A DNA stretch of 32,000 nucleotides from Gallibacterium melopsittaci. GTDB taxonomy: Bacteria > Pseudomonadota > Gammaproteobacteria > Enterobacterales > Pasteurellaceae. Both the position numbers and the translations under genes were made by a program. This document shows positions 19,422-31,140 of this stretch, piece by piece (positions within the stretch are counted from its first letter, which is position 1; each line of letters begins with the position of its first letter). The notes below the pieces were generated by a model. That model saw only the letters and a program-made list of their open reading frames with translations. It searched no databases and was not told where the DNA came from. Location of the stretch: NCBI RefSeq assembly GCF_042433085.1, contig NZ_JBHLWA010000049.1:91603-123602 (forward strand), in the 5' to 3' direction.

Positions 19422-19739
19422 TTATAAAGACTGCTTTTCATAACTATAATGAACAGAAACTCGTCTATCTTTATCTATTTTTAGTTCCATTTTTCTCCAA
19501 TCATTTTTCTCTTTCATTAAAAAATATAGCTGTTCGCATAAAGGTTCCGCAGCTTCTTTAAGTTCAGAAAATCTATTTGGTACATTATTTTTATTCTCTT
19601 TGATAAACCAACTAGAAAATGAACTCCAATTTTCTGATAATGAAAATTTATATTCTAAATAAGCCTCTAAATAGCCACCTTGGCAGTGATTATGTAATAA
19701 TTGTGTAATTTGACTAAGAATTTCTTGTTGTTGTTCCAT
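19422..19739 (-). CDS. Putative cognate immunity protein (YezG/DUF600-like) for the upstream nuclease
   Basis: This 105-aa acidic protein starts 2 nt after the toxin stop. Its C-terminal pattern W-x5-L-x-I-D-x5-V-x-V-x-Y-x-Y resembles YezG-type antitoxins. The assignment rests mostly on position. Confidence 0.5.
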   Translation of the reverse strand: MEQQQEILSQITQLLHNHCQGGYLEAYLEYKFSLSENWSSFSSWFIKENKNNVPNRFSELKEAAEPLCEQLYFLMKEKNDWRKMELKIDKDRRVSVHYSYEKQSL

Positions 19740-19741
19740 TT

Positions 19742-20719
19742 TTAAACTCCACCTGGTTGATTTTTAAAAGTAACAATTGTTGGCTTTCCATCTATAACAT
19801 AAGTAACTTCTAGTTTTGATGGTCTTTTTTCTGGTTGCTGAGGATCATCATAAATTAATTTAACAGTAACAGTTACATCTTTTCCCTCTTTTACCGCTTC
19901 ACGTAACGTATTTTCAAGTTTTTTATATTCTCCACGATTAAAATTTTGATTTTGTGGAAAAAGATTACTATAGCTAGAATCTCCTCCAAGAGAATGTGCT
20001 TGAATATGTCCTCCCTCATCTCCATCAATCCCCTGGTTCCCAACCTCCTTTGTTTTTGCACTATCTTGTGATGTCCTCTCTTTCTCTGTTAATACTGGAG
20101 TAAACTCATATAAAATTACTCTTCCTTTCTCATCTGTTTCAATCTTATTACCATTAGATAGCTCATAAATTGTATTAGGCTCTACATTATCTAATTGTTT
20201 TTTATCATTTTCATTCTCCATATCTATTTTGATTGTTATTTTTTCTATCTTAGAAACTTCATTTTTATCAGTATCATTATCTTGAATATATACCAAATAC
20301 TCATCTATTTTTGCAGTTAATTCATCTAGCAAAATATCTATATCCTTATCATCAAAAGGAGTTTTTTCATCTCTACCTTCAAAGCGAATCTTTTCATCTT
20401 TATCTTCACCCCAAGTAGGCATACATTTTTCACTCAGAACTGTTTCATACTTATCTCTTTGAATATATACCTTACCACTTTCCAAATACTCATCTAATTT
20501 ACCAATTTCTGCTAACTCCTTATCTTTTTTTGCAGTTAATTCATCTCTACCTTCATAACGAATCTTTTCATCTTTATCTTCACCCCAAGTGGGTATACAT
20601 TTTTCTTCACTCAGAACTGTTTCATACTTATCTCTTTCATGAGAGGGAATATCCCTTTTATACGTTTCTTGATAAGTCTCAGCTATCTCTTTTTTAGGAG
20701 TATCCATTTTTTCAAACAT
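19742..20719 (-). CDS. Polymorphic-toxin-like protein with a C-terminal DNA/RNA non-specific endonuclease domain (PF13930 / YeeF-CT-like)
   Basis: The C-terminus, Y.LSNGN..ETDEKGR....L......R...G...DGDEGGHIQAHSLGGDSSYSNLFPQNQNFNRGEYKKLENTLREAVKEGKDVTVTVKLIYDD....RPSKLEVTYVIDG, fits the GGH...LGG...N..PQ...N.G signature of Endonuclease_NS_2 toxins. I prefer the ATG at 20719, because the track's GTG at 20728 lies inside the AAGGTGA Shine-Dalgarno. Confidence 0.75.
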   Translation of the reverse strand: MFEKMDTPKKEIAETYQETYKRDIPSHERDKYETVLSEEKCIPTWGEDKDEKIRYEGRDELTAKKDKELAEIGKLDEYLESGKVYIQRDKYETVLSEKCMPTWGEDKDEKIRFEGRDEKTPFDDKDIDILLDELTAKIDEYLVYIQDNDTDKNEVSKIEKITIKIDMENENDKKQLDNVEPNTIYELSNGNKIETDEKGRVILYEFTPVLTEKERTSQDSAKTKEVGNQGIDGDEGGHIQAHSLGGDSSYSNLFPQNQNFNRGEYKKLENTLREAVKEGKDVTVTVKLIYDDPQQPEKRPSKLEVTYVIDGKPTIVTFKNQPGGV

Positions 20720-20759
20720 AAAAATCACCTTAATTAACCTAATATTAATTTATATTTCC

Positions 20760-21566
20760 CTACTGTTTTATTATTCCACTAGAATCTGTTCTAAAAGAAT
20801 TTCCATTAGATAATATATAAGTTGTATTAGGTTCTAAATTTTTAGCTATATCTTCACCTTTTACTTTATCTAGATCGATAGAAATAACTTTATTTGGGAA
20901 ATCTTGGCCTGTAATAAATTTTCTTATTTTTATTATTTCTTGCTTAATCTATTTTATATCAGAAACAATATTTTCAAACTTCTCTCTGTTTTTGTTTATA
21001 TTTTCTGGAATAATTTCACCAGTAAAAGCCTTCTGCATTAAAGCCGCATTTTCATTTTTTATTGATTTTAGTTCAGAATATTTGCTATCTAGTTCAGATT
21101 TTAATAAATCAATTCGTTTTTCTTTTTCATTGATTACATTCTCCATTTGAGTATATTCTTTTATACTTTTAAATTCTTGACGAATATCTTTCATTTCTTG
21201 AGAGAGGGTTTGCACCCTCTCAAATTTATTACTAGAAATTTCATTATATTTTTCTAACAATATCTCACCTGAAAGATATTTTACATAATCCTCACTCACT
21301 TCTTTTTCAAGTTTTAATTTCTCTTCCTTTTTTTCCATAAAGGATTCTCGTAAGGAATATAATTTATCTTGGCGTTCTTCAACTGTGAGGCTGCCTATTT
21401 TGATACTATCTTCAAACCAATCTTTTGTATCCTCATTCTTTCCTATTTTATCAGTTGGATTAAACACCTTTCCCCAAGGTGGAGTATCTTTTTCATATAC
21501 TATTGGGTTAAAAGCATTTTTTATTTCCGAAGTAGAGTTTATTTTCTCTTTTTCTAAATTAAACAT
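20760..21566 (-). pseudogene. Coiled-coil protein that appears to be a degenerate, nuclease-less paralogue of the downstream toxin, with an in-frame TAG at 20949-20951
   Basis: The 205-aa ORF has a PPWG motif near its N-terminus, then heptad-rich K/E sequence. It ends at a TAG, and the same frame continues for 62 codons: IKQEIIKIRKFITGQDFPNKVISIDLDKVKGEDIAKNLEPNTTYILSNGNSFRTDSSGIIKQ*. The tail LEPNTTYILSNGNSFRTDSSG parallels VEPNTIYELSNGNKIETDEKG, which lies just upstream of the nuclease domain in the next gene. Confidence 0.5.
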
Positions 21567-21581
21567 TTCCCCTCTCCTTTT

Positions 21582-29432: not shown

Positions 29433-29453
29433 TTTATTTATCCTTATTACAAT

Positions 29454-29867
29454 TTATTTTTTATAAGTAACATTAATTTTCTTATTGACTAAATCTTTCC
29501 CTATTTCAAAATCAGGGTTATATGTTGCTAAATTATGTGCGGCGATTCCTGCAGCTGCTGCTATACCAACAACAGTTCCAATACCTGAAAATAAACCGCC
29601 TCCCATTAACGCTGCTCTATTTTCTGTATAAACACGGCAAGAAAACTTATTACTTTCAATAATTTCCTCTACCTTTCGAGCATAATAAAGAATGTCATCT
29701 GTTTTTATGGAAAAATCGACTTTCAATTTAATCAATTTTTCGATGAACCTCTCATTAATTGATTCATCTGAATAAGTTTTATAACCATACTGTTCAATCC
29801 ATTCTTTTTTTGTTAAAGAGAGGTCTTTTTTGTAGTAGTCTAATAATATTTCGTATGTTGATTTCAT
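29454..29867 (-). CDS. Small protein with a C-terminal glycine-zipper hydrophobic segment; paralogue of the 108-aa ORF
   Basis: The C-terminal half is CRVYTENRAALMGGGLFSGIGTVVGIAAAAGIAAHNLATYNPDFEIGKDLVNKKINVTYKK. It aligns with CRVYTKNRMVLGLSYLLNPAWGVLSIASIAAHNFITRNPDYEIARDLANGRVEVVYKG of the neighbouring ORF. Confidence 0.6.
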   Translation of the reverse strand: MKSTYEILLDYYKKDLSLTKKEWIEQYGYKTYSDESINERFIEKLIKLKVDFSIKTDDILYYARKVEEIIESNKFSCRVYTENRAALMGGGLFSGIGTVVGIAAAAGIAAHNLATYNPDFEIGKDLVNKKINVTYKK

Positions 29868-29898
29868 TATTTGTTACCTTATCAAATTTAAATAATTG

Positions 29899-30225
29899 TT
29901 AACCTTTATAAACCACTTCCACTCGTCCATTTGCTAAATCTCTAGCGATTTCATAATCTGGATTGCGGGTAATAAAATTATGGGCTGCAATAGAGGCTAT
30001 CGATAACACCCCCCAAGCAGGATTTAATAAATACGATAACCCTAATACCATTCTATTTTTGGTATAAACTCGGCAGGTTAAACGGTGTTTTTCAATATAG
30101 TCTTCCAACCAATTACTCACCTCTAACATTTCGCTTATACCAACATCACAAATAACAAAACTGCTTTTTAATGGAATAAGCTCTATTGCGGTATGTTTAT
30201 AACTATGAATATTCGTTGATATCAT
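29899..30225 (-). CDS. Small protein with a hydrophobic segment; paralogue of the 137-aa ORF
   Basis: See the paralogue alignment for the 137-aa ORF. Its ATG overlaps the regulator stop (ATGA at 30222-30225), which implies translational coupling. Confidence 0.6.
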   Translation of the reverse strand: MISTNIHSYKHTAIELIPLKSSFVICDVGISEMLEVSNWLEDYIEKHRLTCRVYTKNRMVLGLSYLLNPAWGVLSIASIAAHNFITRNPDYEIARDLANGRVEVVYKG

Positions 30226-31140
30226 CTTCCTTCTCCGCTTTGGTTAATTAAATAATCATTTAATTTTTCTAACATTCTTTTTTGTAATTCATTTGGGCTA
30301 ACAATCGTTAAATGCGGAATCCAATATTGCACAATCGGTAAAATATCTAATTCATTAACCTCTTTGCAGGAGAGTAATAATTCACCTGACTCTAATTTGT
30401 GTAATAACGTTTGATTCGGTAATAAATTACGGCGTAAAAAGAAATTGGCGGCAAAGTCTGATACTCGAATCACTACTTCAGGAAGCTGATTACCATAAGA
30501 AAGGGAGTCATTCTGTTTTATTTCGTCAATAAATTTTTGGTTTGGAATATAGGTTTCTGCTAATACACGTAAATTACTGATTTGCGAAAAACAGAATGTT
30601 TTTTGTTTATGATTGTCGAGTTGGTCGGTCGCAATTAAATACCAAATGCCATTTTTATTTGTTAGGGAATAAGGCGATACTTGATAAAATTTGGGGTGTG
30701 CTGAATGCACCTTTTTATATTTAAATGAAATATTTTTTCGTTGGTTAATCGCCTCTTTTAATTGCTCAAATTGTTCTGTTAGACCACTAATATTTTCATA
30801 TTGTATGCCTTTAACTTGTACCGATTGTGTGAGTTTTTCTTGATAGAAGGCTTTATCTACTGATGGAAATAAATCAGAAATACTGGCAAAAAGCGCAAAA
30901 CGTTGAATATCTTCTTCAGTTAAAACATCTATTTTGTTTTGGCTTAATTTATAAAAGCGAGGACCTTTTTCTTCCCAAGGAAGAAAGGCTAAGCGTTGGT
31001 TAATATCACGTTGGATAGTTCTACTTGATACATTGAATTGTTCTGCTAACTCGACAGAATCAATTCTCCCCCCCCCCCTCATGGTTCAGGAGAGATAAAA
31101 TAGCACTTAAACGTTGTGCGAGTGGGATATGTTTTTTCAT
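30222..31140 (-). CDS. WYL-domain transcriptional regulator (N-terminal HTH), 5' end frameshifted at a G11 tract
   Basis: The 286-aa ORF contains the HTH remnant (ELAEQFNVSSRTIQRDI) and a WYL motif (NGIWYLIA). The ATG at 31140 opens MKKHIPLAQRLSAILSLLNHEGGG..., which would join in frame with ...RIDSVELAEQF if the tract were G10 or G13. As it stands, that frame stops at a TGA (31060-31062). Confidence 0.8.
31068..31078 (-). repeat. Homopolymeric tract: C11 on the plus strand, G11 on the coding strand
   Basis: Direct count gives 11 consecutive C at 31068-31078, located at codons 21-25 of the WYL regulator gene. Confidence 0.95.

Follow-up and report, generated by a model that had tools for sequence, protein, structure and literature searches.

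Eleos is a two-gene anti-phage system that consists of LeoA and LeoBC. In enterotoxigenic Escherichia coli (ETEC), the LeoABC dynamins enhance toxin release, potentially via vesicles (PMC4159319). For polymorphic toxins, Zhang, de Souza, Anantharaman, Iyer and Aravind (2012) list the type II, V, VI and VII secretion systems (T2SS, T5SS, T6SS and T7SS), PVC and TcdB/TcaC among the trafficking routes, in a text where the word dynamin has no occurrence (PMC3482391). In the present work, we analyzed a stretch of 32,000 nucleotides (nt) from Gallibacterium melopsittaci (contig NZ_JBHLWA010000049.1, positions 91,603 to 123,602; hereafter, the window), which contains a minus-strand gene block encoding a WYL-domain regulator, two dynamin-like GTPases, a tail-anchored protein, a HerA/FtsK-type ATPase and a nuclease toxin followed by a probable immunity protein. 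Judged from sequence comparison, the core of this block is a real and widespread gene system that we found described nowhere, and the same comparison establishes that an interbacterial-type toxin-immunity cargo is joined to a machine of its own, based on a translocase-type ATPase.

An initial annotation, made from the letters of this DNA, had stated that its author knew of no described system joining these modules, and none was found via PADLOC, Pfam, NCBIfam or the literature. A full-text literature search, whose reach left out most subscription-journal papers, gave no paper linking dynamins to polymorphic toxins, HerA or WYL. Further, no description of the system was found by term searches in three likely papers (on SUKH, 2011; on polymorphic toxins, 2012; and on an E. 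coli dynamin, 2026), and PADLOC returned nothing beyond generic HerA, WYL and weak Leo matches.

The ORF map contained the eleven consecutive minus-strand open reading frames (ORFs) announced at 19422-31140, and the earlier domain calls (a WYL/WCX regulator, two Dynamin_N GTPases, a DUF87/HerA P-loop, a PF13930 nuclease and a C-terminal anchor in a 290-amino-acid (aa) protein) were confirmed. The proposal of an eleven-gene unit, however, had to be reduced to a conserved unit of approximately seven genes, namely the regulator, DynS, DynL, the adaptor, the ATPase, the toxin and the immunity gene; two small paralogues, a 135-aa ORF and a decayed toxin are local additions. In order of transcription, the conserved genes are:

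30222-31140, minus strand: regulator with helix-turn-helix (HTH), WYL and WCX domains; true ATG at 31140, the longest intact ORF (30222-31082) starting from an internal ATG
28425-29432, minus strand: DynS, short dynamin-like GTPase of 335 aa; Dynamin_N match with an E-value of 6.5e-21; intact
25546-27891, minus strand: DynL, long dynamin-like GTPase of 781 aa; Dynamin_N match with an E-value of 6.7e-13; N-terminal extension, GTPase domain and long helical stalk
24663-25535, minus strand: tail-anchored adaptor of 290 aa; a novel helical domain in two copies, a low-complexity linker and a C-terminal membrane helix at residues 271-289
21582-24653, minus strand: signature ATPase of 1023 aa; DUF87 match with an E-value of 1.4e-15; HerA/VirB4-type P-loop motor at residues 495-880
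19742-20728, minus strand: nuclease toxin with a leader, a repeat-containing linker and a C-terminal PF13930 (beta-beta-alpha-Me) endonuclease
19422-19739, minus strand: putative immunity protein of 105 aa, beginning 2 nt past the toxin gene

Relatives of the ATPase, 40-60% identical, were present in at least 562 species when one genome per species was scanned and the best 80 loci were returned. They belong to at least five phyla and include Gamma- and Betaproteobacteria, Clostridia, Bacilli, Veillonella, Fusobacteria, Synergistetes and Brachyspira (spirochaetes). The window ATPase itself is 100% identical to an NCBI record of G. melopsittaci, whereas an exact-sequence look-up in the contig collection found no copy. 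The window proteins were mapped onto 85 loci, and gene order was counted in the 73 with at least 4.5 kb of upstream DNA. Dynamin genes lie directly upstream of the ATPase gene in 72 of these 73, two dynamins or a fusion were present in 70, and an ORF with a hydrophobic C-terminus separates DynL from the ATPase in 57. This co-localization of homologues, with most loci also keeping the adaptor, toxin and immunity gene, confirmed that the juxtaposition is not due to chance. The initial annotation had also suggested examining whether the dynamin pair, the tail-anchored protein and the two small paralogues are co-conserved with the ATPase; the dynamins and the adaptor are, whereas in the related-loci comparison the paralogues were confined to some Pasteurellaceae.

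The same gene order was observed in plasmid copies from E. coli and Lactococcus, which had been annotated independently. Their NCBI labels read ‘dynamin family protein’, ‘ATP-binding protein’, ‘SMI1/KNR4 family protein’ and ‘hypothetical protein’, with the toxin labeled as ‘HNH/ENDO VII family nuclease’ or ‘HNH endonuclease’. When the block was compared with E. coli genomes by megablast, nothing matched; the divergent E. coli copy was found by protein search on the ETEC plasmid pTW10590_133 (strain TW10590; locus L086) at 49.9-58.3 kb. The cassette is present in only one of 5426 complete E. coli genomes. This IncI/K plasmid carries etpB, which we take to be an ETEC adhesin gene, and has an IS66 element where the regulator would be expected. 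Dairy Lactococcus plasmids of 58 kb, including L. cremoris pF27B (L087), carry the cassette together with an Abi gene. The cassette, which we regard as horizontally mobile, sits on conjugative plasmids and integrative islands.

Additional genes accompany the unit in parts of its range. An approximately 220-aa HEPN-like protein, which contains an RNQIIH (Rx4H) motif and matches HEPN_RiboL-PSP weakly (E 0.003), is encoded after the immunity gene in 18 loci (L001:14330-14989, L088:14340-15002 and 16 others) from Pasteurellaceae, Psychrobacter and Lysobacteraceae; in these lineages its gene, absent from the window, may belong to the system as an eighth component. Separately, an extra AIG1/septin-like GTPase ending in a glycine zipper is encoded just upstream of the WYL regulator at L051:3354-4352, L063:2412-3515 and L078:2607-3695, and it would be a third GTPase tied to the system in some Firmicutes.

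The nature of the cargo was evident from the gene that directly follows the ATPase, which encodes 190-330 aa and in many loci overlaps the ATPase stop by 4 nt. A recognized toxin domain was found in 63 of the 70 distinct downstream ORFs, distributed over the Pfam classes LHH (28), WHH/Colicin-DNase (25), PF13930 (7), glutamine deamidase (2) and metallopeptidase (1). Whatever the toxin domain, a leader is kept from Pseudomonas to Clostridia, which begins with M-x-[FL]-E-x-[FL] and continues as ...LA+EM....eLDkP (ending in LDxP). A candidate immunity ORF was present in 62 of the 70 distinct loci, and approximately 55 of the 62 match a named immunity family of Pfam (SUKH, 40; DUF6985, 10; PoNi, 3; YezG-like, 2). 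SUKH, DUF6985, PoNi and YezG-like families partner secreted interbacterial toxins.

In the window, the toxin matched Endonuclea_NS_2 over residues 184-313 (1.5e-21), and a toxin of the PF13930 type follows the ATPase in seven other loci. Its real start is likely the ATG at 20719 (MFEKM...), since this codon is preceded by the Shine-Dalgarno sequence AGGTGA. The 105-aa protein encoded next is 44% identical to the product of the gene following an Actinobacillus ureae PF13930 toxin; the A. ureae protein has a YezG-like match with an E of 3.3e-4, compared to 0.048 for the window protein. By this resemblance, the 105-aa protein is probably the cognate, YezG-like immunity protein. The closest relative, from Avibacterium, has LHH and SUKH where the window has PF13930 and YezG-like. 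Tandem toxins were observed in the Firmicute loci L051, L063 and L073, and the window retains a decayed extra copy.

How toxins are exchanged was traced by comparing the loci of H. haemolyticus and Haemophilus sp. C1 (L007 vs. L009). At the nucleotide level, the stretch running from the upstream flank through DynS is 96.5% identical; identity is 88-98% across the ATPase gene's 3' half together with the first approximately 30 toxin codons, and it is 94.8% in the downstream flank. In between, the toxin tips are only 23% identical and the immunity proteins 22%, one tip being WHH-type and the other LHH-type. The tip and immunity gene were thus swapped behind a shared leader, which is the recombinational replacement that defines polymorphic toxins. 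Taken over all loci, the downstream genes show the marks of that class: a shared leader with at least five toxin families, an immunity gene that changes with the tip, and tip replacement with displaced copies. A second swapped block in the Haemophilus pair (approximately 6535-11098) covers DynL, the adaptor and the first approximately 380 ATPase residues, with identities of 36-41%.

Divergence of the toxin leader tracked that of the ATPase C-terminal domain (partial Mantel r = 0.50, p = 0.001; 65 loci, motor core controlled), in contrast with the N-terminal or middle domains of the ATPase, for which r was about 0. This pattern fits a docking of the leader on the C-terminal domain.

The ATPase itself combines a familiar motor with parts particular to this family. 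In the AlphaFold2 (AF2) model (predicted local distance difference test, pLDDT, 69), an alpha/beta domain (1-215) and a second domain (333-450) are followed by a linker and the motor (495-880), for which Foldseek matches included DndH-C (1.5e-10), HerA (4d2i), VirB4 (4ag6), Sir2-HerA and TrwB. The Walker A (GSTGSGKS) and Walker B (VLEEAH) motifs are invariant. The N-terminal 480 aa have no Pfam annotation, and the family that they define forms 1006 clusters at 50% identity, nearly all of 1000-1150 aa. Between the first two domains, a Ser/Thr-rich insert (218-332) is modeled with low confidence as a long beta-hairpin; in approximately two thirds of the homologues it includes an uncharged Gly/Ala-rich stretch of 25-47 aa that resembles a membrane hairpin. 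The helical C-terminal domain (888-1023) is the least conserved part of the protein. The best NCBIfam match was the DNA translocase CedD, far under its cut-off.

Both GTPases belong to the dynamin superfamily, with Dynamin_N scores of 75.5 (DynS) and 49.4 bits (DynL) vs. a cut-off of 27 and the GKST, DxPG and NKAD motifs in each; in DynS these read GTMSAGKST (G1), DLPG (G3) and NKAD (G4). The two GTPase domains are 45% identical, and a helical stalk is present in DynL and not in DynS. DynL relatives measure 750-790 aa in nearly all loci, and DynL gave weak NCBIfam matches to DynA and CrfC. A frameshift had been suspected in the first GTPase gene, but the 335 aa of DynS can be aligned over their whole length with relatives of 312-336 aa, and no repair is needed; longer Firmicute forms are extended N-terminally rather than C-terminally. 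Moraxella encodes DynS and DynL as one fusion protein of 1180 aa, and one H. parainfluenzae lineage has a fusion of 1072 aa; this is classical evidence that the two dynamins act together.

The adaptor carries the conserved motif W..Y..Q..L..NFS.ER..HL..VR twice in the window protein. Its helical domain is present in two copies in Proteobacteria, and Firmicutes have one copy together with two membrane helices. The AF2 model (pLDDT 71) had no fold match in the PDB.

In our preferred reading, which we regard as evenly poised, the cassette would be a polymorphic-toxin delivery machine used against rival bacteria. More specifically, and with some hesitation, we propose that it may represent a new type of secretion system, shared by Gram-negative and Gram-positive bacteria, in which the single-domain HerA/FtsK-type ATPase selects leader-tagged nucleases and the dynamin pair carries them into competitors by vesicle fission or by membrane fusion from cell to cell. 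The WYL regulator would keep the operon repressed until a stress signal, and a run of eleven G residues in its gene (G11) may toggle the regulator in this strain. The ATPase, presumably a hexamer at the cytoplasmic membrane, would dock the toxin leader on its C-terminal domain, being held at the membrane by the adaptor and, in most lineages, by the glycine-zipper hairpin in its Ser/Thr-rich insert. ATP hydrolysis would then strip the immunity protein and move the toxin into or across the membrane, whereupon the GTP-driven dynamin pair would reshape that membrane through fission or fusion, vesicle formation being one example. Finally, the nuclease would leave the producer and enter neighbors without the matching immunity protein. 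Because it would act on the cytoplasmic membrane, such a machine could serve both single- and double-membrane bacteria. The conserved gene order, the toxin-immunity cargo with its leader, the exchange and turnover of toxins, the co-variation of leader and ATPase C-terminus, the 4-nt overlap of toxin and ATPase genes and the Gly/Ala-rich segment in approximately two thirds of the homologues all speak for delivery. The modeled motor fold, in matching the translocases HerA, VirB4 and TrwB, supports delivery as well, and the LeoABC dynamins of ETEC offer, by analogy, a precedent for dynamin-linked toxin release (PMC4159319).

Several observations weigh against delivery. The cassette contains no outer-membrane component, signal peptide or entry domain, and both the exit route from a Gram-negative cell and the entry into the target are conjectural. 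The window ATPase does not have the Gly/Ala-rich (glycine-zipper) segment, and the co-variation between leader and ATPase C-terminus may equally stem from the proximity of these segments in the DNA. Further, phage defence is where WYL regulators and HerA-effector pairs are typically encountered. The initial annotation had offered two readings, defence and nuclease export against competitors; both keep their place here, and export fits better, because the cargo shows every sequence hallmark of a polymorphic toxin.

Defence, the main rival, would take the form of abortive infection: the dynamins, the adaptor and the N-terminal half of the ATPase would sense a phage event at the membrane, the ATPase would free the docked nuclease from its immunity protein, which would serve as an antitoxin, and phage and host DNA would both be destroyed within the infected cell. 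We consider this possible, if somewhat doubtful. Paired dynamin-like GTPases form Eleos, WYL regulators control defence islands, and HerA ATPases work with effectors in Sir2-HerA and DUF4297-HerA, whose structures rank among the closest ones solved. Three or four of the 12 genomic contexts examined are defence-island-like (GmrSD/BrxR/SNF2/DUF1156 in P. aeruginosa, SIR2/PLD-SNF2 in Paraburkholderia, BrxR/SIR2 in the Pseudomonas locus L093 and the Abi gene beside the cassette on the Lactococcus dairy plasmids), but the others, and hence most, are housekeeping regions or plasmid backbone. The HEPN-like gene after the immunity gene in 18 loci also suits defence, as does the lack of envelope-spanning parts, which would fit an intracellular role in single- and double-membrane bacteria alike. 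Hypervariability of a kind often observed in immune sensors marks DynL, the adaptor and the N-terminal half of the ATPase when near-identical strains are compared, and by this analogy the second swapped block of the Haemophilus pair resembles immune-sensor diversification more than a conserved secretion machine. However, we know of no described HerA-effector or dynamin defence system that carries an immunity gene, in contrast with the candidate immunity ORF in 62 of the 70 distinct loci here, most of it from named families. The toxin tip and immunity gene are swapped as a unit behind the conserved leader, which is expected of strain competition and not of self-protection alone; the effectors are almost all of one class, DNases with SUKH-type immunity, and no PADLOC model was matched other than the generic HerA and WYL models and, weakly, Leo.

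The nuclease and its immunity protein could also be an addiction or selfish module that rides beside a machine serving another purpose, for instance in membrane repair, DNA transfer or vesicle biogenesis. The presence of the cassette on conjugative plasmids and integrative islands, the below-threshold resemblance of the ATPase to the DNA translocase CedD and the role of B. subtilis DynA in membrane repair are all in line with a passenger of this kind, but we hold it to be improbable, as the toxin gene is translationally coupled to the ATPase gene in many loci, the family-specific leader co-varies with the ATPase C-terminus, and at least 70 distinct loci have a toxin-like ORF immediately past the ATPase gene (63 with a recognized toxin domain), which is too constant for an unrelated passenger. 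That Eleos, a HerA system and a toxin-immunity pair, all described and separable, merely happen to lie side by side is close to inconceivable: each domain family is individually known, but the neighborhoods already refute this notion, with the order kept in 72 of the 73 loci, which span at least five phyla, the dynamins fused in two lineages, and neither the cut-offs nor the coverage of the antiphage HerA and Leo models attained.

Should the delivery machine be real, it would constitute a new class of bacterial secretion or antagonism system and the first bacterial export route built around dynamins, giving a concrete, testable job to bacterial dynamins, whose functions remain largely obscure. 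If it were a defence system instead, dynamins, a HerA motor and an immunity-gated nuclease would for the first time be brought together in one such system, linking two defence themes that are known separately. Hosts include oral and gut commensals (Haemophilus, Aggregatibacter, Lachnospiraceae, Veillonella, Fusobacterium), pathogens (the ETEC plasmid, P. aeruginosa) and soil bacteria. The conserved leader and the swappable toxin-immunity pair make the system experimentally tractable, and a native E. coli copy exists.

Around this conserved unit, the Gallibacterium block carries features of its own, in addition to a neighboring insertion sequence (IS) element:

31206-31222, from a stem-loop scan: palindrome GCGACA-CACCC-TGTCGC, 66-82 nt upstream of the regulator ATG
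31068-31078, minus strand: poly-G tract, G11, within regulator codons ~21-24; it shifts the frame
29899-30225, minus strand: small protein of 108 aa, a lineage-specific accessory and paralogue of the 137-aa protein
29454-29867, minus strand: small protein of 137 aa, a lineage-specific accessory with a C-terminal hydrophobic glycine zipper at residues 85-110, LFSGIGTVVGIAAAAGIAA
27925-28332, minus strand: ORF of 135 aa with a GTG start, wedged between the dynamin genes
20757-21566, minus strand: decayed toxin gene, made up of a 205-aa ORF, an in-frame TAG and 62 codons that end early in the PF13930 domain
18088-19299: complete IS element with 46-nt imperfect inverted repeats (18088-18133 and 19254-19299) and an rve/HTH transposase gene (18151-19191)

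Along the window, a cytosine permease and deaminase pair is followed by an autotransporter gene, mukBEF, ttcA, the IS element, the block and cmoB. The autotransporter, of 1723 aa, is encoded at 3759-8930 between the cytosine deaminase gene and mukB and ends in a PF03797 beta-domain. The block had been described as more AT-rich than its flanks, and GC was indeed 0.28-0.33 over most of it vs. 0.37-0.42 in the flanks, with the ATPase core (0.35-0.37) above the rest. Since its GC lies below that of the flanks, the block is, by composition, an acquired island between the IS element (beside ttcA) and cmoB. The IS element lies approximately 120 nt downstream of the immunity gene, at the position that the HEPN-like gene takes in relatives. 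A phage origin was rejected, as PHROGs gave generic P-loop matches alone and the phage collection two unannotated metagenomic fragments.

Junctions within the block had been given as ranging from a 4-nt overlap to a 33-nt gap. Most do so, with one overlap of 4 nt and gaps of 31, 21, 33, 10, 9, 15 and 2 nt, and these include the reported ATGA overlap (30222-30225), the gaps of 10 and 9 nt on either side of the 290-aa gene and the 2 nt that separate the toxin gene from the immunity gene; two junctions are larger, at 92 nt (DynS to the 135-aa ORF) and 220 nt (the 205-aa ORF to the toxin). The latter is accounted for, since a toxin remnant fills it. A promoter and terminator scan, to which we give no weight, found fewer promoter-like sites than in shuffles and no convincing internal minus-strand terminator.

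That remnant belongs to a gene which the initial annotation had listed as a degenerate toxin paralogue of 205 aa. The 205-aa ORF is itself not significantly similar to the toxin (E 1.3), but the 62 codons past its TAG are, matching toxin residues 165-204, where the PF13930 region starts, at 43% identity over 40 aa (E 2e-8). Because of this match, the ORF is read as a decayed older toxin gene; its N-terminus, MFNLEK, resembles the start of the family leader.

The regulator carries the HTH, WYL and WCX domains of the BrxR/CapW/PafBC class. Its WYL domain matched Pfam at 2e-12 (47.3 bits vs. a cut-off of 21.8) and PADLOC at 4e-24, and WCX (21.7 bits, cut-off 23.9) and HTH_11 (22.5 bits, cut-off 25) were slightly under the Pfam thresholds, which the Clostridium and Paraburkholderia regulators pass. 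Pasteurellaceae regulators at the same position have 296-304 aa and are 47-59% identical to that of the window; WYL/WCX regulators are also encoded upstream in Moraxella, enterobacteria including Pantoea, Stutzerimonas, Paraburkholderia, Clostridium and Lactococcus. WYL regulators are known for controlling defence islands, and the palindrome at 31206-31222 may be the operator of the window protein. Translation from the ATG at 31140 gives MKKHIPLAQRLSAILSLLNHEGGGEN, followed by a stop. The correction of the tract to ten residues (G10), as had been advised, would yield ...LNHEGGGRIDSVELA, an N-terminus that agrees with relatives. The G11 tract, which is the sole G/C run of at least 8 in the 32 kb and is not present at this place in relatives, represents either phase variation that switches the entire operon or an error in sequencing the homopolymer.

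The two small proteins had been called glycine-zipper paralogues. Their paralogy was supported (41% identity, E 5e-17), but only the 137-aa protein has a true zipper. Homologues of the 108-aa protein, of 107-109 aa, were found only in Ursidibacter and some Haemophilus loci, and scans of Pfam, PADLOC, NCBIfam and PHROGs gave no family match for it. A compensation by the small paralogues for the zipper segment that the window ATPase lacks was considered and dropped, as there was no clean correlation: L009 has both a small protein and the ATPase segment, and L007 has a small protein without the segment. The 135-aa ORF had no tblastn counterpart in the 85 related loci, relatives including the Avibacterium locus having no gene between the dynamins, and its sole family match was a weak one to Imm15 (E 0.004, under the Pfam cut-off); it probably lies outside the conserved system. 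Together, the regulator G tract, the 135-aa insert, the duplicated small accessory genes, the decayed toxin and the IS element look like signs of local remodeling in this strain.

In comparison with known systems, the cassette resembles Eleos and ETEC LeoABC in having two adjacent dynamin-like GTPase genes with intact GTPase motifs. The kinship to Eleos suggested by the initial annotation proved to be distant: in PADLOC, DynS matched LeoBC (6e-9) and LeoA (1.1e-8) through the GTPase domain only, and DynL matched neither at E < 0.01. DynS is far shorter (approximately 335 aa), and here the pair is tied to four further genes, those for the ATPase, adaptor, toxin and immunity protein. With these weak Leo matches, and with the ATPase following the dynamin pair in all but one of the 73 loci, in most of them with the adaptor between, the cassette is not Eleos.

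As in Sir2-HerA (Nezha) and DUF4297-HerA, a HerA-fold ATPase is encoded beside a toxic effector, and these systems are among the closest in solved structure. The cassette falls outside the antiphage HerA families, the scores being 64.7 bits for NF042943 (HerA_antiphage) vs. a cut-off of 800 and 27.8 for NF042944 vs. 850. The effectors here, unlike those of the antiphage HerA systems, are HNH/EndoVII or PF13930 nucleases with immunity proteins, and the ATPase has an extra N-terminal region of 480 aa with a Ser/Thr-rich, often membrane-inserting insert. To our knowledge, the Sir2-HerA and DUF4297-HerA systems have no immunity gene, dynamins or membrane adaptor. Membership in type IV secretion systems (T4SS) or conjugation machinery was likewise rejected: the local P-loop matches to TraD, TraG and TrwB were far below their cut-offs, and no other T4SS genes occur at the locus.

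PF13930/YezG-type pairs are shared with T7SSb. The cassette is similar to the LXG toxins of that system (YeeF-YezG) in that an FtsK/HerA-superfamily ATPase lies beside small, leader-bearing nuclease toxins with immunity genes, and in that a variable part of the ATPase tracks the cargo. It differs from T7SS in that its ATPase has a single P-loop domain and a unique N-terminal region of 480 aa, in place of the multi-domain EssC/YueA, in its two dynamins and tail-anchored adaptor, and in its occurrence also in Gram-negative bacteria. No EssC/YueA, T7SS, LXG or WXG family was among the matches in the Pfam, NCBIfam and PADLOC scans of the locus, and no LXG or WXG family in the Pfam scan of the 70 toxin ORFs; with one P-loop domain and no LXG/WXG substrate family, the cassette is not a T7SS.

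The closest correspondence is with polymorphic toxin systems (PMC3482391), with which the cassette shares a conserved N-terminal trafficking module joined to variable toxin tips (LHH, WHH, PF13930, deamidase), immunity genes directly downstream (SUKH, PoNi, YezG-like), and an exchange of tip and immunity gene by recombination, in which decayed or displaced toxin copies persist. It departs from them in its unusually small toxins (190-330 aa), which as a class have no repeats, signal peptide or processing protease, and, compared to the systems collected there, in a trafficking context with dynamins that is new.

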